Below, in pieces: positions 1,794-47,983 of a stretch of 64,000 bases of DNA (the first letter of the stretch is position 1; each line of letters begins with the position of its first letter). The DNA is from Candidatus Daviesbacteria bacterium RIFCSPLOWO2_01_FULL_39_23 (GTDB lineage: Bacteria; Patescibacteriota; Microgenomatia; Daviesbacterales; UBA10151). A program made the position numbers and the translations under genes. The stretch spans positions 19,619 through 83,618 of the forward strand of contig MFDN01000001.1 of assembly GCA_001776935.1 (NCBI GenBank), read 5' to 3'. The notes under the pieces were generated by a model. It was not told the origin of the DNA and made no database searches. It saw nothing but the letters and a program-made list of their open reading frames with translations.

Positions 1794-1803
1794 CTTTTGT
1801 TAT

Positions 1804-1834
1804 TGACAACGGTTCCCTATTTAAGATATGATAT
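1804..1834 (+). promoter_or_regulatory. Sigma70-like promoter for csoR operon (TTGACA 1804-1809; -10 candidates ATATGA/TATGAT ~1827-1834)
   Basis: Perfect TTGACA, 17-19 bp spacer to a TATGAT-like hexamer, immediately upstream of the palindromic operator and csoR ATG. Confidence 0.45.
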
Positions 1835-1850
1835 CCCCCTAGGGGGGACT
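1831..1850. promoter_or_regulatory. CsoR operator-like GC-rich palindrome (core CCCCCTAGGGGG)
   Basis: Perfect 12-bp palindrome ccccctaggggg at ~1835-1846, flanked tccccctagggggga. Sits between the -10 region and csoR start codon, the only GC-rich dyad in an AT-rich intergenic region. Confidence 0.6.
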
Positions 1851-1858
1851 AGACAAAT

Positions 1859-2131
1859 ATGACTTACAGACCTAAAGATACTCAGGAACGTATTTTACAC
1901 AGACTTAAGATTGCCAAAGGACATTTGCAAAAAGTTATCCAAATGGTTGAATCCGGTCAATATTGCATAGACGTGATTCATCAGTCTCAGGCTATCCAGC
2001 GTGCTTTGCAGGAAGCAGATTCTGTGCTTTTGGAAAACCACCTAAAAACTTGTGTGGTGGATCATATAAAAAAAGGCGAAGCAGATTCGTCCATTCAGGA
2101 AATTATGAATGTTTTACAAAAAAGCAGATGA
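1859..2131 (+). CDS. csoR: CsoR/RcnR-family metal-sensing transcriptional repressor (copper-sensing CsoR-like)
   Basis: 90 aa. CIDVIHQSQAIQRAL...HLKTCV contains the Cys/His/Cys metal-ligand pattern of the CsoR (DUF156) family. First gene of an operon encoding CopA and CopZ. Confidence 0.8.
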   Translation: MTYRPKDTQERILHRLKIAKGHLQKVIQMVESGQYCIDVIHQSQAIQRALQEADSVLLENHLKTCVVDHIKKGEADSSIQEIMNVLQKSR

Positions 2132-2631
2132 ATAACAAAAAAATAATTATTGGTTTTATAATTTTTACCCTTTTAATGCTGGGGGGCGGGGTTTTTGTTT
2201 TAAGCAGTACGACTTCCGGCCCGGGTAAAATCACAGCTTCTCAAAATGCCAAAGCAGAAGTTTTGGAAAAAACTTTTGACTGGGGAAACATACCTATAAA
2301 CGGCGGCAATGCCACAAAAACTTTCATTATCAAAAATACAGGTTCTGAGATCTTGAAACTTACCGGAATTAAGACTTCCTGTACTTGCACAAAAGCGCAG
2401 GTTGAAATAGAGGGAAAAACCAGTCCCTATTTTAGCATGCATGCAACATCGGGGTGGGTCGGAGAAGTGGCGCCGGGTAAAGAGGCCCGGCTCTTGGTTA
2501 TTTTTGATCCGGCTTTTCATGGGCCAACAGGAGTCGGTTCTGTGGAAAGACTGATTTCTATTCAGACAAATGATTCTCAAAACCCTAATCTGGAATTTTC
2601 TTTAAAAGGAGTCGTGATTAAAGATCAATGA
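2128..2631 (+). CDS. DUF1573 domain protein (signal-anchored, conserved TSCTCT motif)
   Basis: MNNKKIIIGFIIFTLLMLGG signal/TM then FIIKNTGSEILKLTGIKTSCTCTKAQ, matching the DUF1573 consensus (FxFxNTG...SCGCT). ATGA overlap with csoR stop. The longer ORF-track start at 1963 overlaps csoR out of frame and is rejected. Confidence 0.6.
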   Translation: MNNKKIIIGFIIFTLLMLGGGVFVLSSTTSGPGKITASQNAKAEVLEKTFDWGNIPINGGNATKTFIIKNTGSEILKLTGIKTSCTCTKAQVEIEGKTSPYFSMHATSGWVGEVAPGKEARLLVIFDPAFHGPTGVGSVERLISIQTNDSQNPNLEFSLKGVVIKDQ

Positions 2632-3557
2632 AAAAAATTAAGAAAATACTGGCAAAAGCGGTTCCTTTATGGATGGTGATTTTAATTACTATAAATTCCA
2701 CCATGATTATGGGTATTGCACAGTATTATTTAATGAGAGCAGAGCTTCGCAGGAATTTAAGCGAGCTTGCAAAAACAACAAAGAGTCCGGAAGATTTAGT
2801 GACAATTCTAAAACAGGAAGTTCTGCCGCAGGATGGTTATACGACTTCTTTAAAATGGAAAGATTTGGGAAAACAATTGGTAGAATCAGGAGCCATTGAT
2901 AAGAAAAAATATGAAGAAATTTTTACTTCTACCTCAGATGGAGCGGACCATATGAAATATCTTAATGAAGCCTCAGAAGATAATATCAGAATAGATGAGA
3001 AAAATTCCCGCTTCATGGTTAACACTTTTTGGGCTTTGGGTTTGGTACAAAAAAGCAAAGTTTTAGATGAAGGGCCGATGAAAACCGGCGGCACGCCGAC
3101 AGAAAATTTTGCCTCAACAGGAGGGTGGACTTTAGGGGCAAAACCTGTAATGGAAATTTATTCATCCAGGGAATTACTGCCCCTGAATTCTTTTCAGCAG
3201 GATTTGGTGAAAAAGATTGCTGAGAATGTTTTCCGTCCCTGTTGCGGCAACTCCACAGCCTTTCCTGATTGTAACCACGGCATGGCTGCTTTGGGTTATA
3301 TAGAGTGGGCAATCTATAACGGTCTTCCTGAGGAGCAAATTTACAAAGACCTGTTAGCTTTTAATGTTTTCTGGTTTCCGCAAAATTATGTGGAAATGGC
3401 AGTGTACTTTGATAAAAACGGCACAAAATGGAAAAATGTTGACCCGAAACTGGCTTTAGGCAGCGAGTACTCGTCCGCTCAGGGAGCGCAGCGTATTAAA
3501 CAATCTGTTCAAAGCGTACCCGGTTTGCAGATTCAGGGAGGGGGCTGCGGGGTATGA
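2628..3557 (+). CDS. Hypothetical membrane-anchored protein with Cys cluster (CCGNSTAFPDCNHG)
   Basis: 309 aa, N-terminal TM helix, ATGA overlap with the upstream gene, ends GGGCGV. No recognisable family. Confidence 0.5.
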   Translation: MKKIKKILAKAVPLWMVILITINSTMIMGIAQYYLMRAELRRNLSELAKTTKSPEDLVTILKQEVLPQDGYTTSLKWKDLGKQLVESGAIDKKKYEEIFTSTSDGADHMKYLNEASEDNIRIDEKNSRFMVNTFWALGLVQKSKVLDEGPMKTGGTPTENFASTGGWTLGAKPVMEIYSSRELLPLNSFQQDLVKKIAENVFRPCCGNSTAFPDCNHGMAALGYIEWAIYNGLPEEQIYKDLLAFNVFWFPQNYVEMAVYFDKNGTKWKNVDPKLALGSEYSSAQGAQRIKQSVQSVPGLQIQGGGCGV

Positions 3558-3561
3558 AGAA

Positions 3562-3600
3562 AGTTCAAAGTTCAAAGTGTAAAGTGTAAAGTGTAAAGTT
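3562..3600. repeat. Tandem heptamer repeat (AGTTCAA x2, AGTGTAA x3, partial)
   Basis: agttcaa agttcaa agtgtaa agtgtaa agtgtaa agtt, lying between the stop of the 2628-3557 gene and the start of the 3618 gene. Confidence 0.8.
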
Positions 3601-3617
3601 ATGAGATATAAGGTTTT

Positions 3618-4454
3618 ATGGAAAATGTACTTTTTCAAACATCTCTTATAGCTGCGTTTGTGGCCGGGATGGTGGCCCTTTTTGCTCCCTGCTGTATTAC
3701 TTTTTTACTGCCTGCTTATTTAGGCAGTGTTTTTAAGGAAAAGGAAAAAGTAATTCTAATGACTTTGGTTTTTGGTGCAGGGATTTTTACGGTGCTTCTG
3801 CCTGCAGTTTTAGGGGTGGCTTTTATTTCCAAATTTTTATTCCGGTACCATGATTTAATTTATTTTATCGGCGGTTTTGTAATGCTTATTGTGGCTTTAA
3901 CTACTTTTTTAGGTTTAAAAATGCCTATGCCTAATTTACCCGGGGCTAACATCGGCAAGAGGACAGATGTGGTATCAATTTTTACGCTTGGGATGGTGTC
4001 AGGTGTTACCAGCGCCTGCTGTGCTCCGGTTTTGATTGGAATTATGACTTTAACATTCCTGTCCCCTACTTTTTTCGGGGCTTTATTGGTAGGCGGTATG
4101 TATGTTTTAGGAATGGTGATTCCCCTGCTTTTGATTGCTGTTTTTCTGGCTGGTAAAATGCCGAAATTTTCTGTTTTAAGAAAACCTATTTTTTCTCTGA
4201 ATTTATTAGGGAAGACCTATTCGGTTATTCTTAGTAATTTAATTGCCTCGGCAATATTTTTATTTACCGGACTTTTGATTTTGGGCTTAACAATTACCGG
4301 TAAACTTTCGGCAGAGAATATGGATGAGTTTACTAAGATTATCACTAGTGCCTTGAGCAGTGCCAACAATGCGTTTGGTAATAATATTTTATTAAACATT
4401 TTGTTTGTGGGTACACTGGGGCTATTTATTTATTGGATATCCAAAAAAGTGTAG
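3618..4454 (+). CDS. CcdA/DsbD-transmembrane-domain-like thiol:disulfide membrane protein with di-cysteine motifs
   Basis: FVAGMVALFAPCCITFLLPAYLGSV resembles the CcdA TM1 motif (AGxxSFxSPCxLPLxPxYL). A second motif GVTSACCAPVLIGIM resembles CcdA TM4 (PCxxP). Multiple TM helices. Confidence 0.5.
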   Translation: MENVLFQTSLIAAFVAGMVALFAPCCITFLLPAYLGSVFKEKEKVILMTLVFGAGIFTVLLPAVLGVAFISKFLFRYHDLIYFIGGFVMLIVALTTFLGLKMPMPNLPGANIGKRTDVVSIFTLGMVSGVTSACCAPVLIGIMTLTFLSPTFFGALLVGGMYVLGMVIPLLLIAVFLAGKMPKFSVLRKPIFSLNLLGKTYSVILSNLIASAIFLFTGLLILGLTITGKLSAENMDEFTKIITSALSSANNAFGNNILLNILFVGTLGLFIYWISKKV

Positions 4455-4482
4455 TATATATCCTGAGGGGGTGATAATCACT

Positions 4483-4611
4483 ATGATGGGTTGGGGAGGT
4501 TATGGCTACGGCATGATGAATTCAGGATTTGGCATACTTTTTTCGTTAGTCGTATTATTGGATCTGATTCTTTTAGGAGTTTGGCTTTGGAAGCAGATTC
4601 AGAAAAAATGA
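4483..4611 (+). CDS. Small Gly/Tyr-rich single-TM membrane protein (42 aa)
   Basis: MMGWGGYGYGMMNSGFGILFSLVVLLDLILLGVWLWKQIQKK. Strong SD gagggggtg 9 nt upstream of ATG. ORF track 4405..4611 trimmed to the SD-supported start. Confidence 0.45.
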   Translation: MMGWGGYGYGMMNSGFGILFSLVVLLDLILLGVWLWKQIQKK

Positions 4612-4633
4612 TTCTTGGAAAGGGGTGATAAAA

Positions 4634-4903
4634 ATGCTGAATGCGAAAGCTTTTGCTAACGCCGCATCGTTGGTGATGGCAGTATGGGTTGTGGGCTGCG
4701 CTTTGCTGGCATATGTAATGCCTGATTTACTTTTTTCTATCTCGCAGTCCTGGACTCATACTATAAATCTCGGGGCAGTCAGAGCGCCGTTTAATCCCGG
4801 TTTGGGATCGCTAATTCTTGGTTTTGTCAGTGCGGTGGGATTGACCTGGGTAACAACTTACGGGACAGTTGCCCTTTACAATAAATTTGCAAAGAAAGGT
4901 TAG
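4634..4903 (+). CDS. Small hypothetical membrane protein (89 aa)
   Basis: MLNAKAFANAASLVMAVWVVGCALLAYV..., two predicted TM helices. SD aaggggtg 7 nt upstream of ATG. Confidence 0.45.
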   Translation: MLNAKAFANAASLVMAVWVVGCALLAYVMPDLLFSISQSWTHTINLGAVRAPFNPGLGSLILGFVSAVGLTWVTTYGTVALYNKFAKKG

Positions 4904-4909
4904 AGAGCA

Positions 4910-5335
4910 ATGAGAAAGGCTGTTGTTTACGGAATTTTGGCAGGCGCGGGACTGCTCGTTCTATATCTTTTAGTGATGGGTTTGGCATCAGGGTCATGGG
5001 ATTACACTGCGAGACAGCTGATCAATTTTAAGTTTTGGATTGCTGCGCTGGTTTTGGGGTTTGGTATTCAGGTTGGGCTGTTTAGCTATCTTAGGAATTG
5101 CCGTGAAGAAACTGCAGCAGGTAAAAGGACAGTTGCAGCCGGAGCAGGTACATCTACTGTGGCGATGCTGGCATGTTGCGCCCATCACATAAGCGATGTT
5201 TTGCCTTTTTTGGGCTTGTCAGTATTAAGCTTGACACTTAGCAAATATCAGGCGTGGTTTTTGGGTTTGGGTGTTGCGTCAAACCTAGTTGGGATATTTT
5301 TGATGCTACAACAAATTAGGAGAATGAAAAAATGA
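4910..5335 (+). CDS. Hypothetical integral membrane protein with ACCAHH motif
   Basis: 141 aa, 3-4 TM helices, MLACCAHHISDVLPF in a TM segment. Located inside the copper operon. Confidence 0.45.
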   Translation: MRKAVVYGILAGAGLLVLYLLVMGLASGSWDYTARQLINFKFWIAALVLGFGIQVGLFSYLRNCREETAAGKRTVAAGAGTSTVAMLACCAHHISDVLPFLGLSVLSLTLSKYQAWFLGLGVASNLVGIFLMLQQIRRMKK

Positions 5336-5763
5336 ATAAATTGGGAATAGTTTTAATATTAACAATGGTTTTTTTAACAGCCTCATGGGTATGGATGGTA
5401 AGCGGGTCAAAACAGGATCCTGCGCCTTCAAAAATTCCCATGACTTTAAGCAGTCAAAGCGATGAGAAAGGAGATGTCGCTGTGAAAGTTACACCGATTT
5501 CTCTAGAGCCGGGTAAACAAGCAAAATTTGAAGTGGTTTTGGATACTCATTCAGTAGAGCTAATTTATCATATGGTTAAGATTTCCAGCTTAAGCGATAA
5601 TCAAGGCAATGCATTGAATCCAGTTTCTTGGAGCGGTGGATTAGGTGGCCATCATTTAAAGGGCGAACTTGTTTTTCCTCCTCTTAAGATGGATGCTAAA
5701 TCAATAGAGCTTTTTATTTCTGGTATTGATGGTTTTGACAGAAGTTTTAGCTGGAATATATAA
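5332..5763 (+). CDS. Hypothetical secreted/periplasmic protein (signal anchor, GGHH motif)
   Basis: MNKLGIVLILTMVFLTASWVWM signal. Beta-rich sequence with LGGHHLKGEL. ATGA overlap with the upstream gene. Confidence 0.4.
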   Translation: MNKLGIVLILTMVFLTASWVWMVSGSKQDPAPSKIPMTLSSQSDEKGDVAVKVTPISLEPGKQAKFEVVLDTHSVELIYHMVKISSLSDNQGNALNPVSWSGGLGGHHLKGELVFPPLKMDAKSIELFISGIDGFDRSFSWNI

Positions 5764-5781
5764 AGGAGGATACCGAAGCAG

Positions 5782-6141
5782 ATGAGTATAGATAAAATAT
5801 TAGTTGCTTTTTTTGGTCTTTTCGGGATAGCTTTTACTTTTTGGTTTTTTTTGATGAAAAAAGAAAAAGAGGTGGAAGTAAGCGGGGAAATAGATATAAC
5901 AGTTTCCGGTGGCTATTCTCCGGAGGTAATTTCCGTTCCTGTTGGTAAAACTACCAGAATGAATTTTTTCCGGACAGACCCGACAGATTGTTTGTCCGAG
6001 GTCGTGCTTCCTGATTTTAAAATCCGAAAAGAGCTGCCTTTAAATAAAAAAATCAGCGTGGAAATAACTCCGAAAAAAACAGGGGAATTTGGATACACTT
6101 GCGGCATGAATATGTATCATGGAAAAATAATAGTTAAATAA
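5782..6141 (+). CDS. Cupredoxin-like (Cupredoxin_1-type) small membrane-anchored protein, probable Cu-binding
   Basis: N-terminal TM then [17 protein letters not shown]...[19 protein letters not shown] (C-terminal Cys/Met/His ligand cluster as in cupredoxin folds). SD aaggagga upstream. Immediately precedes copA. Confidence 0.5.
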
Positions 6142-6142
6142 T

Positions 6143-8383
6143 ATGGCAGAAAATAAGAAAACATTCAAAATAAAAGGCATGCATTGCGCTTCATGCATAA
6201 GGGTAATCGAAAGCTCTATTAAAAAGATTCCCGGAATATCCGATGCTTCAGTTAGTTTAGTGACAGAAAAAGCAACAGTAGCGTTTGATCCCAAAAGGGT
6301 AAATGATGAACAAGTTATGTCTGCTGTTTCCAGGGTAGGTTATAAAGCCTTTTTGGAGGAGGAAGGGGAATCGGAAGAAAAAGAAAAAGAAGAAAAGCAA
6401 AAAGAACTTTCTGCCCTTAAAAGAAAAGCTTTTATCAGTTTGTTTTTGGCATTTTTAATTGTTTGGGGAAGTTTTCCTTACATTGACCAATTTGCTCCAT
6501 TTATCTTAAAAAACTTCTGGGTGCAACTTATTTTAGCTTTGCCTGTGCAGTTTTGGGCAGGACTCATGTTTTATAAAGCAACAATTCCCGCTCTGCGCCA
6601 CCGCACTGCCAATATGGATACTTTAATCACCATCGGAACAACTGCGGCTTTTGGGTATTCGGTAGTCGCTACAGTTTTTCCGCAGATTATTGAAAGCGCA
6701 GGCATTGAGCCGATGCCTTATTTTGATGTATCGGCAGTAATTATCGGTTTAATTTTGCTGGGCAGATATTTTGAAGCAAAAGCCAAAGCAGGTACCTCAG
6801 AGGCAATTAAAAAGTTAATCGGATTGCAGGCTAAAACTGCCAGGGTTTTAAAAAACGGTAAAGAGGAAGATATAGCAATTGATCAGGTTGTGATTGGGAA
6901 TATCATCCGGGTAAGACCAGGCGAGAAAATTCCGGTTGACGGAAAAGTAAAAGAAGGGCAATCTTCGGTAGATGAGTCAATGATTTCCGGAGAAAGTATT
7001 CCGGTGGAAAAAACAAAAGGAGACTTAGTTATCGGAGGGACGATAAATAAAACAGGAAGCTTTATTTATGAAGCAACCAAAGTGGGAAGCGATACTATGC
7101 TTGCGCAAATCATCAAGCTGGTTGCCGAAGCGCAAGCCAGCAAGGCGCCGATTCAAAGACTGGTTGACTTAATTTCTTCTTACTTTGTGCCGGTAGTTTT
7201 AATGCTTGCAATTTTTACCTTTACAGTATGGTATATCTTTGGGCCTCAGCCTGCATTTTTATTTGCCATGCTGAATTTGGTGGCGGTTTTGATTATTGCC
7301 TGTCCTTGTGCCATGGGACTTGCAACTCCAACAGCCATTATGGTGGGAGTGGGCATTGGGGCGGAACACGGGATTTTAATTAAAAACGCAGAAAGTCTGG
7401 AAATTGCCCATAAAATAAATACGGTGATTTTTGATAAAACCGGAACTTTAACAAACGGTAAACCAGTGGTAACAGACATAATTTCGACCTCGCAGGTCAA
7501 AGGCGCTGGACCTGCGAGGTCTGTGCTGCAGATTGCCTCATCAATAGAAAAAGGGTCAGAGCACTCCTTGGCTGAGGCTATTGTCCAGAAGGCAGACCAG
7601 GAGGGACTTGCCCTGAGCGCAGTCGAAGGGTTTAAGGCAGTACCGGGGCACGGAGTAGAGGGAATTATTAATAAAAAAAGGGTGATCTTTGGGAACAGGA
7701 AGTTGATGGATCGGGAAAAAATTATCTGGCGGAAGATGGAGGCAAATATTGAAAAGTTGGAATCAGAGGGTAAGACAGTTATGATGCTGGCAGTTGAAGG
7801 TGAACTTGCTGGATTGATAGCAGTTGCGGATACTTTAAAACAAACTTCCAAAAAAGCAATTGACACGCTTTCGAAGATGGGAATAGAGGCTGTGATGATT
7901 ACAGGTGATAATGAAAGGACTGCTAAAGCCATCGCAAAACAGGCAGGAATTAAAAGAGTTTTGGCAGAAGTGCTGCCTGATCAAAAAGAAGCTGAGGTAA
8001 AAAAAATTCAGGCAGAGGGTAAAGTGGTGGCTATGGTGGGGGACGGGATTAATGATGCGCCGGCCCTGGCAGCAGCCAATATAGGTATTGCTATGGGAAC
8101 CGGAACAGACGTGGCAATGGAGGCGGCGGGAATTACCCTGGTAAGTAAAGATTTAGCTTCTGTTGCCGAGGCAATTGAATTATCAAAAAAAACAATGAGA
8201 ACAATAAAGATGAATCTTGTCTGGGCTTTCGGGTATAATATAACCTTAATACCTGTGGCAATGGGAGCTCTTTATCCGGTCTTCCAGATATTGCTAAATC
8301 CCATTTTTGCCTCAGCGGCAATGGCTTTAAGTTCAATATCAGTGGTCAGCAATTCATTGCTTTTGAAAAGGACTAAACTCTAA
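6143..8383 (+). CDS. copA: Copper-translocating P1B-type ATPase
   Basis: N-terminal HMA domain GMHCASC, TM CPC motif ([13 protein letters not shown]), DKTGTLT phosphorylation motif, GDGINDAP hinge. 746 aa. Confidence 0.95.
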
Positions 8384-9427
8384 ATGGATCTTTGGCTTAT
8401 CTTTTTTACAGGACTGACAATAGGCGGCGTTTCCTGCATGGCAGTGCAGGGGGGGCTTTTGGCATCCACTATTGCTGCCCGCGAAGAAGAAGAAATAGAA
8501 GAGGGGAAAAATAGAAAACAGGGCGTTTGGCCGACTTTGTCATTTTTAATCACTAAATTCTTTGCTTATATTATTTTAGGACTTGTTTTAGGCGGGTTTG
8601 GGGCGGCTCTGCAGATTTCGGAAAGAGTGCAGGCTTTTATGCAGATTGCAGCTTCTTTATATATGCTGGCTGTTGCCATGAATTTACTGAATGTCCACCC
8701 TGTTTTTAGATATGTGATTATTCAGCCTCCCAGATTTTTAACAAGACTTGTGAGAAACCAGTCTAAAAGCAAGGATTTATTTGCACCCGCATTTCTTGGG
8801 GCAATGACTATTTTCATTCCCTGCGGAACAACACTGGCTATGGAAGCTTTGGCAATTTCCTCAGGCAGCGCAATTAAAGGCGCGGCAATTATGGGAGCTT
8901 TTGTTTTGGGTACTTCTCCCCTATTTTTTGCGTTGGGATACATAACTACCACTTTGGGTGATGCTTTCCGGGCAAGATTTTTAAAGCTGGCAGCAATATT
9001 AATAATTTACCTTGGAATGACATCCTTAAACGGGTCGCTAATTTCCCTTGGATCTCCCATTACCCTGCAGTCTTTGGCAGACGCTTCGCCTATTCAGATA
9101 AGTTTTGGCGGCGAAGAAGGTTCAGACAGCGCAGATACTGTAAATACTACTTTAGTAAACGGAGTGCAGGTTGTGGAGATTCAAGCTTTTCCTAATGGGT
9201 ACAGTCCTACTTATATTAAGATTAAAAACGGGGTGCCGACAAGAATTAATGTAACTGCTACAGGGGGTTATGGTTGCACTTCTGCTTTTGCTATTCCCGC
9301 TTTAGGCGTTAGAAAAAGATTAGCTTTAAATACAACTGTTCCTGTAGAGTTTACCCCTCAAAACAAAGGGAAGATTCTTTTTAGCTGCTCAATGGGAATG
9401 TATTCAGGAGTAATAGAGGTGATTTAA
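8384..9427 (+). CDS. Polytopic membrane protein (CcdA-like Cys-in-TM motifs) fused to C-terminal cupredoxin-like domain
   Basis: TGLTIGGVSCMAVQGGLLAS and IFIPCGTTLAMEAL in TM helices. C-terminal domain ends KGKILFSCSMGMYSGVIEVI, paralogous to the C-terminus of the 5782-6141 protein. Confidence 0.45.
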   Translation: MDLWLIFFTGLTIGGVSCMAVQGGLLASTIAAREEEEIEEGKNRKQGVWPTLSFLITKFFAYIILGLVLGGFGAALQISERVQAFMQIAASLYMLAVAMNLLNVHPVFRYVIIQPPRFLTRLVRNQSKSKDLFAPAFLGAMTIFIPCGTTLAMEALAISSGSAIKGAAIMGAFVLGTSPLFFALGYITTTLGDAFRARFLKLAAILIIYLGMTSLNGSLISLGSPITLQSLADASPIQISFGGEEGSDSADTVNTTLVNGVQVVEIQAFPNGYSPTYIKIKNGVPTRINVTATGGYGCTSAFAIPALGVRKRLALNTTVPVEFTPQNKGKILFSCSMGMYSGVIEVI

Positions 9428-9639
9428 TGATCAAAAAGAAATTTAAAATAACCGGTATGCATTGTTCGTCCTGCGCCATAACCATAGATATGGATTTGGA
9501 GGATTTGGATGGTGTAAAGATGAGCAAGACTTCTTATGCTAAGGCAGAAACTGAAATCGAATTTGACCCGGAAAAAGTTACTGATTCTAAAGTTTTGGAA
9601 ACCATCAAAAAATCCGGTTATGAGGCCAGTATACCCTAA
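9427..9639 (+). CDS. copZ: Copper chaperone CopZ (HMA domain)
   Basis: 70 aa, ITGMHCSSCAITID metal-binding MxCxxC motif. Start overlaps the stop of the upstream gene. Confidence 0.8.
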   Translation: MIKKKFKITGMHCSSCAITIDMDLEDLDGVKMSKTSYAKAETEIEFDPEKVTDSKVLETIKKSGYEASIP

Positions 9640-39377: not shown

Positions 39378-40748
39378 TTATTTAATTTTATGTAAAATTA
39401 GAACCTTATCCCGGTCTTCTTTAAGGATTTTATAATCCTGAGGAAGTATTTGTTTGTTATCAAGCCTCCATTTATTTGTAATCATAATAAAATTATCTTT
39501 GCTTTTTAATAAAGAAATAAAATCCTCAGGTCTTTTTGGCGCTTTAAAAACAATGTCTTTTTTAGAATAAAATAATGCTGCCGGAATATACTCTCCGTCT
39601 ACATAAAAATTTTGAGGGTATTTTGCAGCCTCTTTTGATAAAATTGCTTCATCAGAGATAAATGCCGGAATATTAATAAATTGATACCAAATCATTTTAA
39701 TCTGGTTAAAATAAATAAAAACGCTGAAAATGAGGATTATCCCGTAAATGTGATATTTCCATTTTGGTAAATATTTCTCCAAAAAAGAAAATGAAAATCC
39801 AAAATAAATTAAAATTAAAATCGGAAAAATAGGAATAAGGTGCCAAATTTGTATTTTAGGAGAGAAAATAATCGGTATCAAAAATGAGAGGAAAAAAAGT
39901 ATTAAGATAAAAAACCTCTTTTGTTTTAGGAAAATAGATAGCACAAGTGACAAGACTCCAGGCCAAAACCATCTGCCGATGCCACTATGAAGATATTCTT
40001 TGGCAAGGCTTAAATTGGCAAGATAAGAAGAATCAAAATTTGCTCCTCTTAAGCCTACTCCCAAATAGTTTTGAATAAATTGAGGATATTGAATTATCTG
40101 ACTTAAAAACCAACCTCCGGTAATGCTCAAAGAAAGCAAAAAGGGTAATATTATATCTTTCATTGTTATCGCCCTGTTTTTGTAAAAGATTAAAACAATA
40201 GCCGGAAGAATAGCTAAAGGGACCATAGTTTTTGTTAAAAAAAGTAAAGATAAACTTACTGATAGAGGCAGAAGATATTTTTTATTTTCGGATGCCATAA
40301 CTGCTAAAAGAAAAGTCAGGAGGAAAAACATTGTTAAGATAATATCTAAATTGCCTGACCGTGCTCTAAAAACAAACCAAATTGCTGAAGATAAAGCTAT
40401 TGCTGAGGCGAAGCCTACCAAAGGGTGAAATAGTTTCTTGCCTAACAAATATAGAAGGATAATACTAAAAACCCCTGATAATGCTGAGGGAAATCTGGTC
40501 CAAAATTCATTTATCCCGAATATTTTATAAGTTATTGCCATTAACCAATATCCAGCAATAGGGTGATCAAAGTATGGTTGGCCATTCCAAATCATATTTA
40601 TTAGACTGCCGGATCTTGTGATATTTCTGGCAACCTCTGCATACCAGGCTTCATCCCAACTTACTAATGATGTTTGTCCTAATTTAAATACAAATAAAGG
40701 TAGCAGTGCTATGATTAAAAGGAGAATTAAAATATCTAATACTTTCAC
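39378..40748 (-). CDS. GT-C-fold glycosyltransferase, PMT/ArnT-like (GT39/GT83 family)
   Basis: N-terminal QTSLVSWDEAWYAEVARNI...DHPIAGYWLMAITYKIFG (DE acidic loop and first-loop motifs of the PMT_2/ArnT family). 12+ TM helices. Confidence 0.7.
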   Translation of the reverse strand: MKVLDILILLLIIALLPLFVFKLGQTSLVSWDEAWYAEVARNITRSGSLINMIWNGQPYFDHPIAGYWLMAITYKIFGINEFWTRFPSALSGVFSIILLYLLGKKLFHPLVGFASAIALSSAIWFVFRARSGNLDIILTMFFLLTFLLAVMASENKKYLLPLSVSLSLLFLTKTMVPLAILPAIVLIFYKNRAITMKDIILPFLLSLSITGGWFLSQIIQYPQFIQNYLGVGLRGANFDSSYLANLSLAKEYLHSGIGRWFWPGVLSLVLSIFLKQKRFFILILFFLSFLIPIIFSPKIQIWHLIPIFPILILIYFGFSFSFLEKYLPKWKYHIYGIILIFSVFIYFNQIKMIWYQFINIPAFISDEAILSKEAAKYPQNFYVDGEYIPAALFYSKKDIVFKAPKRPEDFISLLKSKDNFIMITNKWRLDNKQILPQDYKILKEDRDKVLILHKIK

Positions 40749-40761
40749 AAAGATAAGTATA

Positions 40762-43161
40762 TCACCGCTTATTTGTATTCTGATTGAAGAATCTGGGGAG
40801 CATCAGTAAAAGGATAATTATTATTACCGAAATTCCGCTTATGATAGCTCCAGCCTTTAAAGAATTTGGGGCATATTTGAATTCAACAATATGATCGCCT
40901 TTTGGCAAAACAACTCCTCTGAAATTATAGTTTGTTTGGTGAATTACCGACTCTCTTCCATCTATGAAGGCTTTCCAGCCGGGATAAAAAGAATCTAAAA
41001 CTACAAGATAAGAATCTATATTTGCAGAAGCTTTAATTAGAATATGTGAATTAGTAATTTGTTCATACGTTAAATTTTCTTTTAGGTCCTCATTAGAATT
41101 ACTGTTGAACTCAAAATCTGAGATGGAAGTAGTTCTGATAGGGAAACTGTTATCAAGCATCAATTCCAAAGCTTCTTTGTCTGATGCTTTAATCACCCTA
41201 CTGGTTAAGTAAGCTCTTGGAAGAGTTTGTGTATTTTCCAGAATTACCACACCTTTGTCTCCAAATACTTCTTTGTATTTGGGAAGCTTAAGCTTGCTGG
41301 AGACCTTTCCCATTTCAGAAACTTTGCCGTTATTGTCTCTTTTTACAGCCACTATAAAGCGGACATTTGATTCATCCACTATTTTGGAATCAAAGTTTTC
41401 CAGAATACCCCAGCGGGGCTGAGGAGGGGTGTCAGATCTGCCTGAATTAGCAGACGCAAGCAACTTAGCTGTTTTTAACGGGTATACTCCGTCATAGCCT
41501 GCTATAGAAGATAATTTGTAAGGAAGCCACATATTAGCAGGGAAAACATCCTTTTCAGCGGTGAATCTGTCATATGGATATTTTTTCAAGTAATTTGAAA
41601 TAGGAGTTTCGGGATAAATAAAATTTGGACTTGAAAAGGTATTAAATTTAAGTCCGAAACGGAATAACTCGAAAATAAGCACAATAATAAACACTAAGAT
41701 AACGGTAGATTGTGGTAGCTTGGTTTTTTTGGTTAGCAAAATTAATAATGTTACAGTTATTATTAAAATGATGGGTAATATTAAATTTTTCAAGCTGATA
41801 TTTATATGAGAAATAATTTCCAAATCTGCATTTGCATTACTCATTAAAATATACCTGCTTATCAATAAACCTATTGTTATCCCTGAAGCTATGGAAAATA
41901 TCCATATACCGGGCTTTAAGCTTAATTTTGAAGGAGACTGTCTGATTAAAGATATGCCATATGCTCCTAAAACAGAAAGAGAAAAATTAATTAAGAAATT
42001 TGCCCGATTCATTGTTATGGAAGATCCTCCCCAAAGACCGAGTTTGTATAAGAAAACACTCAAAGGATTTTCAACAACAATAACTAAAGTGGTAATGAAA
42101 ATTAAAAAAGCAAACTTAACTGGAAAATTGTTCCAGTAATGCTTTACCCCTATCAGGGCAAAAATTAGGGCTGTTATCCCTCCATATAAGGTAAAATCCA
42201 TATGGTCTCCGCTGCCCCAAAAATTACCTGTGGCATCATTGCCAAAAAAGTCAGGGGCAATCAAGGTAATTAAGTTTTGTAATGATATAAAGGGACTTCC
42301 TGTTCCCAGAGTTTCAACTACTCTTTGAGAAATTCTAATCAATTCTGCGGCAGGAAATAAAAAGATTGCGCTTAAAGATGCGCCTAGAACAATAAAAAAT
42401 ATAACTTTGGGATCAGGTATAAATCTTTTTGTCTTGAAAATATACCAAATAACTAGCGCGACCAAAGTAAAACAAATGATAGGCAAATAACCTGCCAAAA
42501 TTTGTATGCATAAAAAGATGCTAAATAGTATTCCCCATTTTAGTTTTCTAGAAATTAAATATTTGTCTTCCAGTAAAATTAAGATTGGTAAAAACATGCT
42601 GGTTACAGCCTGGGTATTCCATTGCACCCATAGAATTGTAAATCCACCAAATCCATAAACAATGCCGCCAAAAATACTGGAAAGTATTTCCAATCTAAAA
42701 TGTCTTAAGAGTAAATACATAAAAAAAGACGCCAGCAGCGGTTGTGCCATTATTTGAAGAGTCCATGCAATAGGTGATGAGAATATAAGATAAAAAATCA
42801 TTGTAGGAAAAAGCGATCCTACCTGGACATTTGCGAATAACGGATAACCTCCAAACATATAAGGATTCCATAAAGGCAATTGTTTTTGTTTTACTATTTC
42901 TGCAACCAGAGATTTAAAAGGGTAATACAAAGATACGGCATCAGAGAGTTTGGGGTTTTGAACAGGTACTCCCACAATATAATTTCCCCATTTGTAATTT
43001 ATCCATGGGTGGTAAGCTCCCACAATTAAATCTGTAGGTAAAGGAATTAATCCAAGAAATATTTTATAGAAAAATATTAAGGTTAAAAAAGTAAAAAAGA
43101 TAAAAGCTATAATAATTTCTTTAATGCTCACAACTTCATTATATAATAGAGTTATCATCAA
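40762..43161 (-). CDS. YfhO-family GT-C membrane glycosyltransferase-like protein
   Basis: 799 aa polytopic. N-terminus FFYKIFLGLIPLPTDLIVGAYHPW...YYPFKSLVAEIVKQKQLPLWNPYMFGGYPL typical of bacterial YfhO proteins. Start TTG/ATG at ~43155-43161. Confidence 0.7.
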   Translation of the reverse strand: MMITLLYNEVVSIKEIIIAFIFFTFLTLIFFYKIFLGLIPLPTDLIVGAYHPWINYKWGNYIVGVPVQNPKLSDAVSLYYPFKSLVAEIVKQKQLPLWNPYMFGGYPLFANVQVGSLFPTMIFYLIFSSPIAWTLQIMAQPLLASFFMYLLLRHFRLEILSSIFGGIVYGFGGFTILWVQWNTQAVTSMFLPILILLEDKYLISRKLKWGILFSIFLCIQILAGYLPIICFTLVALVIWYIFKTKRFIPDPKVIFFIVLGASLSAIFLFPAAELIRISQRVVETLGTGSPFISLQNLITLIAPDFFGNDATGNFWGSGDHMDFTLYGGITALIFALIGVKHYWNNFPVKFAFLIFITTLVIVVENPLSVFLYKLGLWGGSSITMNRANFLINFSLSVLGAYGISLIRQSPSKLSLKPGIWIFSIASGITIGLLISRYILMSNANADLEIISHINISLKNLILPIILIITVTLLILLTKKTKLPQSTVILVFIIVLIFELFRFGLKFNTFSSPNFIYPETPISNYLKKYPYDRFTAEKDVFPANMWLPYKLSSIAGYDGVYPLKTAKLLASANSGRSDTPPQPRWGILENFDSKIVDESNVRFIVAVKRDNNGKVSEMGKVSSKLKLPKYKEVFGDKGVVILENTQTLPRAYLTSRVIKASDKEALELMLDNSFPIRTTSISDFEFNSNSNEDLKENLTYEQITNSHILIKASANIDSYLVVLDSFYPGWKAFIDGRESVIHQTNYNFRGVVLPKGDHIVEFKYAPNSLKAGAIISGISVIIIILLLMLPRFFNQNTNKR

Positions 43162-43164
43162 ACT

Positions 43165-44700
43165 ATGAATATTTTTTCACAAAAGCTTAAAATATTTTTT
43201 CTTATACTGATTATTTTTAATACCTTACTTTCCGCTTATTGGTTAATTAATGGAGATATTCATTATGATGTGGATGTTTCCCGTGACTTTTTGGTAATGG
43301 AGGATATTATTGAGAATAATCATTTTACCCTACTGGGTCCGCGTTCAGGAGCCATTCCGGGGATTTTCCATGGTCCACTTTGGTTTTATATTAACTTACC
43401 TGCATTTTTTCTGGGTAAAGGCGATCCTTTGATTGTTGGTTGGTTTTGGTTTTGCTTATCCGTATTTTTCCTGCTGCTTGTATTTTGGGTTACAAAAAAA
43501 CTGTTTGATACAGAGGTGGCATTTCTATCGACCCTTCTTCTTTCAGCTAATTCCATTATAAATCCCTCAATAGGCCTGAAGAATTTTTATAATCCCTATG
43601 GAGCGGTATTCTTAACGCCATTATTCTTTTGGTTATTCCATCGCTATATTAATAGTTTAAAAGCTAAATACTTAATTTTTAGTTTATTTACATTAGGTTT
43701 TATTATTCAATTTCAAATGGCTTTCGGAATACCGATACTTATTGCGCTTACAGTTTTTTTAGGATATTTGTTATTTATCAAGAGGAAACTCATCCATTTT
43801 CTTTCATATTTAATTTTGTTAATTCCTATTTCAACCTTTATATTATTTGATATAAAGCATGACTGGCTGCAGTATAAGGCATTGATTCGATTCCTTAGCC
43901 AAAATAGTAGCTCGGGTAATATTTTGAATATTTTTCAAGACCGTATAAGGGTATTATTTTTTGACTTTTTTGATTTTTTATCTCCGGGGAAAAATATTCT
44001 TACTATTTTTCAGGCAATTTTTTTCCTTGTTGTGTTAATTATTGGTATTAAAAGCAATAATAATCCGAAGAGAAAAGTTTACATTTTATTTTCTATAATT
44101 TTTTTTGGTTTTTGGGTAGTCTCTTTATTTTATCAAGGCGGAACCGGTAATTATTTTTGGCCGCTTTTGCCGCTTGCTGTCATTGTTTTCTGCTCATTTT
44201 ATCGCGTCTTAAAAGCGAGAATTTTTCTTGGGGTTTTCTGCCTTCTTTACCTGGTTAATGTGTATGCGGGAATCTCGGCAATCATGGATTTTGAAACCGA
44301 TGTCGATAGAAGAGGTCCTCATAGCTGGGCTTTTAATTTATATGTTGCTAAAAAAATCTATGCGGATGCAAAAGTTGATTTTGGATATTTTAACTTTTCG
44401 CCGGACAGGTATGCTTATCAACAAAGATATGCCATGAGCTATGCCAAAAAATATTCCCCAAATCTTAACTCCTTCTCTTTTGTTAAAAAGCCGCTTACTT
44501 ATTTGGTAGAAGTAGATCCTCCGAAGGATAGACCGGATTTAAATGGTACCAGCTGGAGAATTAGCGATGTTGGTATTGACCGATTGCCTGATCAGATTTT
44601 TCGCTTTGACTTTATTCAGGTTGAGAAATACTTCCTAAATAATGAAGAGATAAAAATAGAACCTAATGCATACTTGTTAGACAAGGCATTTTTAAGATAA
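43165..44700 (+). CDS. PMT/ArnT-like GT-C membrane protein, paralog A1
   Basis: HYDVDVSRDFLVMEDII...LLGPRSGAIPGIFHGPLWFYINLPAFF...KKLF... Same architecture as A2 (46216..47742). Confidence 0.55.
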   Translation: MNIFSQKLKIFFLILIIFNTLLSAYWLINGDIHYDVDVSRDFLVMEDIIENNHFTLLGPRSGAIPGIFHGPLWFYINLPAFFLGKGDPLIVGWFWFCLSVFFLLLVFWVTKKLFDTEVAFLSTLLLSANSIINPSIGLKNFYNPYGAVFLTPLFFWLFHRYINSLKAKYLIFSLFTLGFIIQFQMAFGIPILIALTVFLGYLLFIKRKLIHFLSYLILLIPISTFILFDIKHDWLQYKALIRFLSQNSSSGNILNIFQDRIRVLFFDFFDFLSPGKNILTIFQAIFFLVVLIIGIKSNNNPKRKVYILFSIIFFGFWVVSLFYQGGTGNYFWPLLPLAVIVFCSFYRVLKARIFLGVFCLLYLVNVYAGISAIMDFETDVDRRGPHSWAFNLYVAKKIYADAKVDFGYFNFSPDRYAYQQRYAMSYAKKYSPNLNSFSFVKKPLTYLVEVDPPKDRPDLNGTSWRISDVGIDRLPDQIFRFDFIQVEKYFLNNEEIKIEPNAYLLDKAFLR

Positions 44701-44711
44701 ACTAATATTTT

Positions 44712-46199
44712 GTGATTAAGAAATATTTACGTTCGCCATTTATTATACTTTTTTTTATTCTTATTTTAGGATTATTTTTTAGACTTTATAAACTGGAAAT
44801 ATTTTACTCTTGGGGGCATGATCAGGATTTATTTGCATGGATAGCAAAAGATATCGTGATTGACCATCATCTGCGCCTGATTGGACAGGAAACAAGCATA
44901 ACAGGGGTATTTATAGGTCCCATCTTTTATTATCTGATGGCGGTTTCTCTTGCGCTTTTTAATATGAATCCTCTGGGTGCTAATATTTCTGCAGTAATAA
45001 TTTCCTTATCAACAATTGTTAGTATTTATTGGGTTTTTAGTCAGTTTTTTGGGAAAAAAATCGGATTAACTGGAGCCTTTTTTTATGCAGTTTCTCCGGG
45101 TATCATACTTTTTGACAGGTGGATTGTTCCAACGCAACCTACCAGTCTGTGGTGTGTCTGGTTTTTGTACATCCTTCTCTCAATTCTCAAAGGTAATTTC
45201 CCCTTGGTGTTATTGGGTTTGCTAATTGGTTTGATCTGGCATGTTCATGTAGCTTTTATCCCGCTGCTTATACTTATACCTATCGCTTGGTGGTTATCTA
45301 AAATGCAGGGGTATAGAATTAAAATTACTGCAAAAAGCATAGTAATTTCTCTTCTTTTAATTTTTACCTTATTACTTCCTTTCTTCACCTTTGAGATTAG
45401 GCATGGATTCCAACAGATTAAGGGTTTGACCAGGGCTACTTATGAAGAAAAAGGAGACGTGAAAGGCATGGATAGGTTAAGAAAAGTTTTTAACGTTTCC
45501 GGAAGAGCGTTATCAGGCATAGTGCTTCTGGATAAAAATGCTTCTCTACCGAAGGAGTTTTTTATGTCTTTGGTCCCTCTTTTGCTCCTCTTAATTTTTT
45601 ATTTGTATAAGACAAAGATCATAACAAGAAATCAGACTGTAATTATCGGTTTATGGATTGGTATTGATTTATTGGGTCAATTCTTGTCAAAAAGATCTAT
45701 ACCGGAATATTATTTTGCTAATTTTATTGTGGTACAAATTTTAGTAATATCTGTATTTATTTCCACTTTTAATTTAAAAAGGGGATTGTCGTTTACTCCT
45801 TTATTGTTAGGAATGTACTTATTTGCAGCGACTTTTTGGTTTGTCACACAACCAGATGATCCGGGCGGATTCTTGCAAAAGAGAAGAGCTATAGAATACA
45901 TAAAAAATAATGCAGGAAACAAAGGGTATCCATGTGTGGCGATAAATTTTATTGAAGGATACGAGGGATTACCTAATGGATTCAGATACTTGTTTTGGTT
46001 GAATAACTTAAAAATTATCACACCGGGAAATGATATTCCTGTTTATAGTATAGTGACGCCTTGGACGATTTCGGCAAATGAAATTAATGCCAAATTTGGG
46101 GTTTTTGGTATCATTGAACCTCCCTCGAAAATAGTTGATCCGGAGCTTTGTTCTGACTCAAGCAGGCAATTACTACCTATATGGGGCTTTACAAATTAA
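44712..46199 (+). CDS. PMT/ArnT-like GT-C membrane protein, paralog B1
   Basis: FFRLYKLEIFYSWGHDQDLFAWIAKDIV...RLIGQETSITGVFIGPIFYYL...YAVSPG...R fits the PMT_2/ArnT N-terminal pattern. Close paralog of 52767..54272. Confidence 0.6.
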   Translation: MIKKYLRSPFIILFFILILGLFFRLYKLEIFYSWGHDQDLFAWIAKDIVIDHHLRLIGQETSITGVFIGPIFYYLMAVSLALFNMNPLGANISAVIISLSTIVSIYWVFSQFFGKKIGLTGAFFYAVSPGIILFDRWIVPTQPTSLWCVWFLYILLSILKGNFPLVLLGLLIGLIWHVHVAFIPLLILIPIAWWLSKMQGYRIKITAKSIVISLLLIFTLLLPFFTFEIRHGFQQIKGLTRATYEEKGDVKGMDRLRKVFNVSGRALSGIVLLDKNASLPKEFFMSLVPLLLLLIFYLYKTKIITRNQTVIIGLWIGIDLLGQFLSKRSIPEYYFANFIVVQILVISVFISTFNLKRGLSFTPLLLGMYLFAATFWFVTQPDDPGGFLQKRRAIEYIKNNAGNKGYPCVAINFIEGYEGLPNGFRYLFWLNNLKIITPGNDIPVYSIVTPWTISANEINAKFGVFGIIEPPSKIVDPELCSDSSRQLLPIWGFTN

Positions 46200-46215
46200 A
46201 AATAATATTCGAAGT

Positions 46216-47742
46216 ATGATTGAAGTTGTAAAAAAATGGCATTATTGGGCCATAGGTTTTATTATCTTGAATATTTTCTTAAGTTTAAGATGGTTAATTA
46301 ATGATGACATTCGTTTTGATGTAGATATATCCCGTGATTTTTTATTAATAAAGGAAATTATTACCCAAAAACCCATTACTTTGATTGGATCTCATACATC
46401 AATAAGCGGAGTTTTTCATGGACCGTTATGGTATTACCTGAATGTACCAGCTTTTTTTATCTCTTCCGGTAATCCAGTACTGATTGGATGGTTTTGGTGG
46501 GGATTGTCAATTTTAACTCTTGCTATAATATATTTTATTTCATTAAAATTATTTAATAAATCTACTGCTCTTCTGGCGACCTTACTTTACAGTGCAAATT
46601 CTATTATTAATCCTAATTATGGTCTGAAGATGTTTTTTCCTCCATATGGAGCTGTAATGTTGTTTCCAATATTTTTCTATCTTTTTATCCAGTATATTTT
46701 TAATAAAAAAGTCAAATATCTGGCATTTGCCATACTTATTTTAGGATTTATTATTCAGTTCGAAATGGCTTTTGGGATTCCTATATTGGGATTGATGGTA
46801 TTATTTCTAGTATATTTCTTATCCAGCAGAAAATTATTGAAACATTTTTTGATTCTTCCACTAATTTTTTTGCCGCTTTCCACATTTATCATTTTTGAGA
46901 TTCGACATAATTTTTTGCAGATTCAATCTCTGATTGGATATTTTGAATCTCAATTGGGCAAGAATCAATTAAATTTATACATGATTTTTATTGATAAAAT
47001 CAGAGGTATTTTTACGGATACATTTTTCTTGTTGATGCAAGATAATAGAAGCCTCAGCTGGACTTATTCTATTTTATTTGTAATTTTAATTTCCAGGATT
47101 AAATCTCCTCTTAAAAAAATTTATTGGATGTTTTTATTTTTTTATTTAGGCTATTGGGTTATTCATCTTTCTTTAAAACCCCTTTGGAGCAGTTATTACT
47201 GGCCACTCCTTACTGTAATAATTATTCTATATGCAGGTTTTATAAACTTTTTCTCCAAGAAGATATTTATTTTATTTTTTATACCGTTACTTTTATGGAA
47301 TATGTATATTGGATTAAAGTATATTAAAGATTTTGAAATGAATGTATCAGTGAGAGGTAAAAACAGTTGGGCATTTAATGAGTTAATTGCTCGAACGGTC
47401 TTTGAAGATGCAGATAGTGATTTTGGTTATTTCATTTTTATGCCAGAAAGATGGGTTTTTCAGGGATGGTATGCCTTGGATTTTTTACAGAGTCAATATC
47501 CGCAAAGAAAAGCACACCCTTTTGCAAAACAAAAATTGACGTATTTAATCATATATGATTCGCCAAAAGACTATCAGGATCCTATTAGTATGGGATGGAG
47601 AATTACCGATCTTAAAATTACCCAAAAACCGAAGGAGAATAAACGAATCGGAAACGTTGAGATTCAAAAATATTATTTATCCGAAGAAGAATTGCGATTA
47701 CCCGTGAATCCTTATTTGCTTAATTCAACTTTTTTCCGCTGA
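46216..47742 (+). CDS. PMT/ArnT-like GT-C membrane protein, paralog A2
   Basis: RFDVDISRDFLLIKEIITQKPITLIGSHTSISGVFHGPLWYYLNVPAFF. Close paralog of A1, including C-terminal domain motifs (SWAFN...DFGYF...KLTYL...PKD). ORF-track start 46135 trimmed to avoid overlap. Confidence 0.55.
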   Translation: MIEVVKKWHYWAIGFIILNIFLSLRWLINDDIRFDVDISRDFLLIKEIITQKPITLIGSHTSISGVFHGPLWYYLNVPAFFISSGNPVLIGWFWWGLSILTLAIIYFISLKLFNKSTALLATLLYSANSIINPNYGLKMFFPPYGAVMLFPIFFYLFIQYIFNKKVKYLAFAILILGFIIQFEMAFGIPILGLMVLFLVYFLSSRKLLKHFLILPLIFLPLSTFIIFEIRHNFLQIQSLIGYFESQLGKNQLNLYMIFIDKIRGIFTDTFFLLMQDNRSLSWTYSILFVILISRIKSPLKKIYWMFLFFYLGYWVIHLSLKPLWSSYYWPLLTVIIILYAGFINFFSKKIFILFFIPLLLWNMYIGLKYIKDFEMNVSVRGKNSWAFNELIARTVFEDADSDFGYFIFMPERWVFQGWYALDFLQSQYPQRKAHPFAKQKLTYLIIYDSPKDYQDPISMGWRITDLKITQKPKENKRIGNVEIQKYYLSEEELRLPVNPYLLNSTFFR

Positions 47743-47983
47743 GCCTGCAATTTAATAAAAGCAATATTTTTTAGGTATCCTTTCCTATTTCTTACAGCTT
47801 TTTGAGTTTTTTCTTAATTTAGAATTATAAAATTTGTTTATTATGAATGGAACCATTATATTTGCAGATTTTAGATATCTTCTAAGATGGACAACAGGGA
47901 GTAAATTTATTTCAATAGTAACAAAGCTTCTAAAGGAGAATTTTATTTACAGGCTTTTGTCGGCTCCTGTAGTTTGAAGTTGT

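Follow-up and report, generated by a model that had tools for sequence, protein, structure and literature searches.

A CcdA homolog with doubled membrane cysteines in copper operons of the Candidate Phyla Radiation points to a copper-dedicated variant of the thiol-relay machine

The CcdA/DsbD proteins, defined by two cysteines, are the textbook route by which reducing power crosses the bacterial membrane, and the mercury transporters MerT and MerF use a vicinal cysteine pair in a transmembrane (TM) helix for thiophilic-metal hand-over. Here we describe a CcdA homolog of 278 amino acids (aa) in which each of the two defining cysteines is followed by a second one. It is encoded at 3618-4454 on the + strand of a 64,000-nucleotide (nt) stretch of Candidatus Daviesbacteria bacterium RIFCSPLOWO2_01_FULL_39_23 (contig MFDN01000001.1, positions 19,619 to 83,618; hereafter the window), within an operon headed by a gene for a CsoR-family repressor. 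Together with two cysteine-rich surface proteins predicted from the genes upstream, its sequence points to an undescribed, copper-dedicated variant of the thiol-relay machine.

Several described systems join membrane or envelope thiol chemistry to copper. In ScsB/ScsC, a DsbD-superfamily reductant conduit tied to copper tolerance feeds an exported thiol protein; in addition to eight TM segments, ScsB possesses periplasmic alpha and gamma domains and a lysine eight residues after its first cysteine (PMC3322552). Exported thioredoxin-fold proteins reduce copper-ligand cysteines, as TlpA does for ScoI and CoxB (PMC7558416), and the TlpA of Corynebacterium glutamicum is strongly induced by copper excess (PMC3140484). 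CopG is a copper-resistance protein whose gene is linked to copA, and it binds copper through adjacent cysteines (PMC7558416). The 278-aa protein shares the adjacent cysteines and the linkage to copA; unlike it, CopG is a soluble periplasmic thioredoxin-like protein, and the two are unrelated in sequence. The same 195,000-character review of bacterial copper homeostasis (PMC7558416) mentions neither CcdA, DsbD nor ScsB. Our literature searches on doubled-cysteine CcdA, its partners, CcdA in CsoR/CopA operons, CcdA with YHS domains and copper systems of the Candidate Phyla Radiation (CPR) found nothing specific, only general precedents. The logic of a copper-dedicated conduit, as we propose it below, would be analogous to that of ScsB/ScsC, of TlpA-dependent reduction and of the copper-induced TlpA.

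The four cysteines of the 278-aa protein lie in the segments AGMVALFAPCCITFLLPAYLGSV (residues 16-38) and GVTSACCAPVLIGIM (residues 129-143), as C25-C26 (codons 3690-3695) and C134-C135 (codons 4017-4022). Searched as a single sequence, and unlike described CcdA proteins, it falls below the detection of the family databases: neither Pfam nor NCBIfam returned a match at E <= 0.01, and sequence searches of Pfam and the PDB returned none at E <= 10. Pairwise BLASTP against the DsbD_2 protein of the same operon was likewise not significant. A profile of its family matches Thermus thermophilus CcdA (5VKV) at E = 5e-23, or 1.2e-16 with CC-only sequences; 23 of 65 family members match the Pfam family DsbD_TM (PF02683; best 4e-13), and phmmer connects the target to PF02683-positive proteins with single cysteines at E of about 1e-19 to 1e-24. 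By these profile relationships the protein is a member of the CcdA/DsbD superfamily. When the family profile is aligned to 5VKV, C25 and C134 fall exactly on the two redox cysteines. The first-pass annotation, made from the letters of the window, had described a CcdA/DsbD-like protein with Cys-Cys doublets at the sites of the canonical TM cysteines. Both segments that it quoted are present, the homology and the placement of the doublets are borne out, and the searches led to CcdA with conserved cysteine pairs rather than to an unrelated transporter family with variable ones.

We next consider how far the doublets are conserved. Both pairs are kept in all 120 close homologs listed. Among 150 divergent homologs, each representing a cluster at 50% identity, those in which both sites are covered comprise 99 with CC at each site, 5 with a single cysteine at each site and 9 with mixed patterns, at least 6 of the last being fragments of no more than 192 residues. 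The CC/CC arrangement persists down to about 26-31% identity, and when 60 CC-only sequences, which share 26-80% identity with the target, are aligned, four of the seven invariant columns are the paired cysteines. Kept in close and divergent homologs alike, the doublets are not a product of chance. A histidine, His78 (codon 3849-3851), accompanies them in 249 of 252 sequences of the CC type. All five single-cysteine relatives have another residue there, mostly arginine, and arginine is also the aligned residue in T. thermophilus CcdA. Since His78 tracks the CC type and is replaced in the single-cysteine relatives, C26, C135 and H78 are the signature of this subfamily, acquired together. The subfamily counts 786 representatives at 50% identity and occurs in at least 571 species genomes. 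A canonical-type DsbD_TM protein encoded in another copper locus (L086:9407-10132; loci are denoted here by L numbers) has SPCC in TM1 and one cysteine in TM4; a second TM1 cysteine alone therefore occurs outside the subfamily.

An AlphaFold model built on the 65-sequence alignment (pLDDT 83.7, pTM 0.78; a shallower alignment of 18 sequences gave an unusable model with pLDDT 58) predicts a CcdA-fold core of six TM segments. As in CcdA, TM1 and TM4 are interrupted at the active site, with the helix breaks falling exactly at the two cysteine pairs, and the protein consists of the membrane domain only, with no alpha or gamma periplasmic domain or other domain found. Foldseek returned no significant match in the PDB. 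Unlike T. thermophilus CcdA, the protein has a second invariant cysteine after each active cysteine and His for Arg at position 78, and its APCCITFLLP holds no counterpart of the proline that follows the TM1 cysteine in the SPCVLP of 5VKV. In the model the core is also extended by a beta-hairpin at 192-203, by an amphipathic helix and by a seventh TM segment, which leads to a predicted cytoplasmic C-terminus. A CcdA-like orientation would place the N-terminus outside and the C-terminus inside. In relatives of the protein, fused YHS and HMBD-P1B-ATPase domains are placed after TM7 and would therefore be cytoplasmic, in agreement with this orientation; one relative carries a direct Redoxin fusion with an extra eighth TM segment, which would put the Redoxin outside. 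The comparison with ScsB shows further differences, as the 278-aa protein lacks the extra domains, the eight TM segments and the diagnostic lysine (the residue at C25+8 is Ala33). The active cysteines of ScsB are single, and it is a protein of Proteobacteria and Chlamydia, whereas the CC-type proteins occur in CPR bacteria and DPANN archaea.

The surroundings of the gene are those of copper defense. Using tblastn with the proteins of the window, we counted co-occurrence in the 80 best-scoring loci from species-representative genomes, all of them CPR and biased toward Microgenomates. DUF1573 is present in 78, the uncharacterised 309-aa protein encoded upstream of the CC gene (p309) in 68, CopA in 60, CsoR in 54 and CopZ in 40; lower counts were obtained for the DsbD_2-cupredoxin protein (35), the cupredoxin (34), DUF5676 (33), the 141-aa protein (14), a 42-aa open reading frame (ORF; 14) and the 143-aa protein (11). 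DUF1573, p309 and the CC gene follow one another in a fixed order on one strand. DUF1573 and p309 are thus the tightest partners of the CC gene, and neither appears in the first-pass annotation. Thioredoxin-fold partners are scarce in these 80 loci: a Redoxin occurs in L035 only, Thioredoxin_3 in none, and TrxR-like genes lie far downstream in a few. Within the neighborhoods of the window and the 80 loci, cytochrome c maturation genes were not found, and copper genes, DUF1573 and p309 stand there instead; in this the CC-type also differs from CcdA genes in their cytochrome c or sporulation contexts. The tie of the 278-aa protein to copper is strong: its gene belongs to an operon with CsoR, CopA and CopZ, synteny is conserved, and relatives are fused to copper ATPases and YHS domains. 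Many contigs (L003, L004, L008-L016 and others) hold clearly CPR/Daviesbacteria-like genes yet are titled 'uncultured Gammaproteobacteria/Pseudomonadales ... binchicken', which resembles placeholder taxonomy.

Both partner proteins are predicted to be anchored in the membrane, and both hold conserved cysteines. The DUF1573 protein (2128-2631, + strand; PF07610) has an N-terminal membrane anchor and an Ig-like domain of the HYDIN/VesB type, and its gene lies just upstream of the CC gene in the 78 loci counted above. Within its S-C-x-C-T motif (codons 2377-2388) the CxC is 100% conserved, as is a methionine (2437-2439), with a histidine (2518-2520) at 99%. Selenoprotein relatives of DUF1573 carry UGC at the S-C-x-C-T motif (PMC9312934). 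In about 11 loci a rhodanese-DUF1573 fusion stands directly 5' of the CC gene; in it the rhodanese active-site cysteine is joined to the DUF1573 CxC (L077:7264-7989, L067, L076, L075, L080, L069, L035, L073, L078 and L065; L082:6058-6786); these fusions hint at sulfur-transfer chemistry. The p309 protein (2628-3557, + strand) has no match in Pfam, NCBIfam or the PDB, and the profile of its family found no PDB relative. It carries an invariant block, [YF]RPCCxNxxxFPDCNHGM, that contains C205-C206, C215 and H217, and a further cysteine (307) two to three residues from the C-terminus in a Gly-rich tail. The p309 family comprises at least 4111 clusters, every one of them named 'hypothetical'. Its members travel with the doubled-cysteine CcdA in CPR bacteria and one DPANN archaeon, flanking CC genes at L082:5174-6061, L083:5183-6286 (the archaeon) and L088:7902-8762.

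More distant members of the subfamily, seen in about six independent loci, stand in comparable settings. At L082 the order is an ArsR/YHS regulator, DUF1573, a p309 homolog, the rhodanese-DUF1573 fusion, a small ORF, a CC domain fused to HMBD and a P-type ATPase, and a multicopper oxidase. The DPANN loci L083-85 encode a p309 homolog, an anchored Redoxin (CxxC), a CC::YHS fusion, Thioredoxin_3, YHS and a YHS-ATPase. In L086/87 the neighbors are DsbD_2-cupredoxin, HMA, the CC-type protein, Redoxin, Thioredoxin_3, a canonical-type CcdA paired with a thioredoxin, CopCD and CopA, and in L088/89 (Parcubacteria) they are DUF1573, the CC-type protein, a p309 homolog and a TrxR-like flavoprotein that carries CSTC. 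L095 holds a short CC-containing p309-like protein, a Redoxin (CYPGC), the CC-type protein, a 75-aa ORF, a 141-aa-type protein, DUF2933, DUF5676 and a YHS-ATPase. No other CcdA is encoded within L083 or L095. The Redoxins of L083 and L086 have the usual CxxC; CxxxC, which is Sco-like spacing, occurs in the Redoxin at L095:3311-3919 (CYPGC) and in residues 356-491 of P0144 (CYPAC).

Like CcdA, then, distant CC-type members adjoin exported Redoxin and cytoplasmic thioredoxin-like genes. Because they keep an exported Redoxin, a cytoplasmic Thioredoxin_3, a TrxR-like flavoprotein and, in one case, a Redoxin fusion, the disulfide relay is most likely retained in CC-type proteins. The first-pass annotation had proposed a metal-transfer variant of the DsbD/CcdA scaffold; the scaffold and the copper setting are borne out, and Cu(I) coordination by the cysteine pairs and metal transfer in place of electron transfer are possibilities, discussed below. 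The redox partner set of CcdA is retained in these divergent members. The Redoxins at L083, L086 and L095 are of the sort found in TlpA systems, but those systems serve cuproenzyme assembly or have no dedicated CcdA, and here DUF1573 and p309 take the place of the Redoxin in most lineages. The three nearest single-cysteine relatives that we examined belong to CcdA plus DsbA-like or CcdA-Redoxin-Glutaredoxin modules without copper genes, among housekeeping genes or on short contigs.

The remainder of the window's operon fits within a single, closely packed string of genes on the + strand (1803-9639), several junctions of which overlap by 4 nt. A promoter-like site, TTGACA-18-TATGAT, lies at 1803-1832 (+ strand; a sigma-70-like match at 11 of 12 positions, the best in a 10-kb region), and just upstream of the first gene we read a G/C-rich palindrome, CCCCCTAGGGGG (about 1836-1847, + strand). 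This palindrome, which seems to resemble CsoR boxes, is a candidate CsoR operator. The CsoR-family metal-sensing repressor (1859-2131, + strand; PF02583 at 1e-22) has Y35, C36, H61, C65 and E81, which match the Cu(I)-sensing fingerprint of CsoR (C-H-C, as in Mycobacterium tuberculosis CsoR, with Y35/E81). Its stop and the DUF1573 start overlap by 4 nt. The 60-nt spacer between p309 and the 278-aa gene, whose product has seven predicted TM segments, is mostly a tandem repeat of AAAGTGT (3.7 copies, 3574-3599, within a looser array at 3560-3600). Downstream, all on the + strand, follow a 42-aa Met-rich single-TM ORF read from the sequence (4483-4611; MMGWGGYGYGMM...) and a two-TM DUF5676 protein (4625-4903; PF18926 at 4e-14) with invariant C25, W43 and H45. 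Relatives of both recur in distant loci: a 68-aa ORF similar to the first (L082:6795-7001) stands directly 5' of the CC::CopA fusion gene, and DUF5676 (L095:5726-6007) is found beside a YHS-ATPase. Beyond the 141-aa and 143-aa genes, treated below, the operon continues with a membrane-anchored Cupredoxin_1-domain protein (5782-6141; PF13473 at 4e-23), a CopA-type P1B ATPase (6143-8383; MHCASC, CPC387, DKTGT, YN698, MALSS727), a DsbD_2 membrane domain fused to a C-terminal Cupredoxin_1 domain (8384-9427; PF13386 at 3e-32, PF13473 at 2e-9) and a CopZ-like HMA metallochaperone (9427-9639; PF00403 at 6.5e-12, with CopZ-type NCBIfam matches). The DsbD_2-cupredoxin protein is the second DsbD-superfamily member of the operon and has a single cysteine in each of two helices. 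The closest database proteins are from Candidatus Daviesbacteria and an ACD_38 'uncultured bacterium', which places the window in a Microgenomates (CPR) genome. Elsewhere in the window, G+C content drops to 0.30-0.34 at 40001-48000, from about 0.40 in the rest.

The 141-aa membrane protein (4910-5335, + strand; about four TM segments by inspection of its sequence) contains MLACCAHHISD, with the cysteine pair at 5174-5179 and the histidine pair at 5183-5188. It had been noted as a neighboring membrane protein with CC beside HH in a helix. The motif belongs to a real, conserved and metal-linked family, but the gene is not an immediate neighbor, as the 42-aa ORF and DUF5676 intervene. The family has 163 matches, and CCxH is kept in all 120 of those listed, with a consensus of MLACCAHHxxDxLPxLG and invariant M86, C89-C90 and H92. 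Some relatives carry N-terminal HMA or YHS domains, and family members adjoin a multicopper oxidase in Chloroflexi and a CC-type CcdA plus YHS-ATPase in L095. No Pfam family scored above noise for the 141-aa protein, and its family profile found no PDB relative. An hhalign comparison of the 141-aa and 278-aa families aligned their CC motifs over 128 columns but weakly (probability 3.8%, E = 0.011), and homology between the two is unsupported at that probability. It is plausible that the 141-aa protein handles copper; it is an accessory, not an obligate partner, of the CC-type CcdA. Its usual companion, the anchored, His-rich 143-aa protein (5332-5763, + strand; invariant H73, D89 and H107-H108), always adjoins a 141-aa homolog in the 11 loci that encode it, and a similar protein lies upstream of a 141-aa-like gene on a Chloroflexi contig with a multicopper oxidase alongside (L094:4462-5013).

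We read ORF 3618-4454, with confidence that is about evenly balanced, as a CcdA-type transmembrane thiol:disulfide electron conduit specialised for its copper-stress operon and feeding DUF1573/p309 or a Redoxin. Cytoplasmic Cu(I) would release the CsoR repressor and so allow expression of the whole 1859-9639 operon. The cysteine centre that the CcdA-like protein holds within the membrane would be reduced by the cytoplasmic thioredoxin system; we infer that electrons would then flow outward, to the membrane-anchored cysteine proteins DUF1573 (CxC) and p309 (CC...C...H and the C-terminal cysteine) as clients on the outer face or, in other lineages, to a TlpA-like Redoxin. Kept reduced in this way, the thiols of the clients may bind or process Cu(I) that CopA has exported, or copper-catalysed disulfides may be repaired. 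The doubled cysteines and His78 would be a copper-specific adaptation of the centre, and could serve as a second redox pair, match the vicinal-dithiol clients or bind Cu(I) transiently.

Several observations weigh against such a conduit. No thioredoxin-fold partner is encoded in the window's operon or in 79 of the 80 Microgenomates loci, so that DUF1573 and p309 are guessed clients, and a plain two-cysteine relay leaves the joint gain and near-invariance of C26, C135 and His78 unexplained. The cytoplasmic YHS and HMBD-ATPase domains fused to the CC domain suggest that the protein itself handles metal, and the vicinal cysteine pairs in three unrelated operon proteins (p309, the 278-aa protein and the 141-aa protein) resemble ligand chemistry. 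Furthermore, L086 encodes a CC-type protein alongside a canonical-type CcdA and thioredoxin pair, and the two types are therefore not redundant. Because the extra cysteines and histidine were gained together, in a copper setting, and because of the metal-domain fusions, the coexistence at L086 and the recurring vicinal cysteines, the centre appears to have been altered for a copper-related reason. In a rival reading that we hold only tentatively, a membrane Cu(I) thiolate site is built from the four cysteines and perhaps His78, and alternating access carries Cu(I), not electrons; in another form, the site would hand Cu(I) between CopZ/CopA inside and DUF1573/p309 outside. Put more generally, and no less tentatively, a CcdA fold converted to a copper carrier would use a Cys4(His) site to move Cu(I), alone or along with electrons, between the cytoplasm or CopA and DUF1573/p309. 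Every context examined is a copper locus, which suits a carrier, as do the CC domains fused to HMBD-P1B-ATPases and to cytoplasmic YHS, the co-variation of the jointly gained cysteines with the Arg-to-His change at 78, the position of the CC pairs at helix breaks in the model, the vicinal cysteines of p309 and of the 141-aa protein with its HMA- or YHS-bearing relatives, and the presence of both CcdA types at L086. Chemical precedents include the tetranuclear copper cluster of the CopG CxCC motif (PMC7558416) and the pair of cysteines within MerE's first TM segment, reported to be needed for mercurial uptake (PMC5715351); the authors of a study of archaeal DsbD-family proteins have speculated that these bind Cu+ (PMC7785015). 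What keeps the carrier behind the conduit in our assessment is that exported Redoxin, the Thioredoxin_3/TrxR-like neighbors and the Redoxin fusion require an electron conduit, with no other CcdA in L083 or L095 to serve the Redoxin, and that the two canonical redox cysteines are kept at their exact positions. Moreover, the operon already has CopA for Cu(I) export, and a promoter that is derepressed through CsoR would hardly be expected to drive import.

The remaining readings fare less well. A relay for another thiophilic species, either mercury, silver or gold in the manner of MerT or sulfane sulfur/persulfide with the rhodanese-DUF1573 proteins as partners, seems improbable to us, although about 11 loci do have those fusions directly upstream of the CC gene, vicinal cysteines in a TM helix recall mercury transporters, and the operon's HMA protein also scores against MerP/MerTP models. 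The local motif xxCCxxPxLxxxLG is shared with MerT, MerF and MerE as a resemblance, not as membership (for MerE, PMC5715351); homology is not detectable, fold and size are different, and no mer genes lie nearby. We considered membership in the MerT, MerF, MerC or MerE families and set it aside, as neither the 278-aa nor the 141-aa protein had a Pfam match to them even at E <= 10, and MerA and MerR are absent from the window's operon and from the loci inspected. The regulator's C-H-C fingerprint and the Cu(I)-type CPC/YN/MxxSS motifs of the ATPase also speak for copper, as do the multicopper oxidase and CopCD in relatives' loci, and the rhodanese fusions are confined to a minority of loci. Least likely of all, to the point that we give it very little weight, is an ordinary CcdA that serves cytochrome c maturation or the general upkeep of envelope thiols and in which the extra cysteines are neutral. 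The clear CcdA homology and the database names accord with it, and a second cysteine after the TM1 cysteine is seen in the canonical-type CcdA of L086 too. Neutral residues, however, would not be expected to stay unchanged across 219 sequences with identities as low as about 26%, nor to arise as a pair together with His78; the syntenic genes are those of copper and not of cytochrome c maturation, and it is the single-cysteine, paralog-like relatives that hold the housekeeping contexts. To our knowledge, the Microgenomates/CPR and DPANN hosts mostly lack respiratory cytochromes, which also counts against an ordinary CcdA.

Together, these findings describe a large, phylogenetically broad subfamily with a four-cysteine and histidine centre, wired into copper-defense operons of CPR bacteria and some archaea. 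NCBI names its homologs 'cytochrome c biogenesis protein CcdA', and hosts that are not expected to make cytochromes c are annotated accordingly; the present finding corrects this systematic misannotation. If the protein is a copper-dedicated reductant conduit, it would show by what means minimal cells with an exposed envelope hold their copper-binding thiols in the reduced state. Should it instead be a copper carrier, it would be a new type of transporter on a redox scaffold and part of a hitherto unrecognised pathway of copper trafficking, widespread in CPR and DPANN. Either reading offers a functional lead for DUF1573 and p309, both of them large orphan families.

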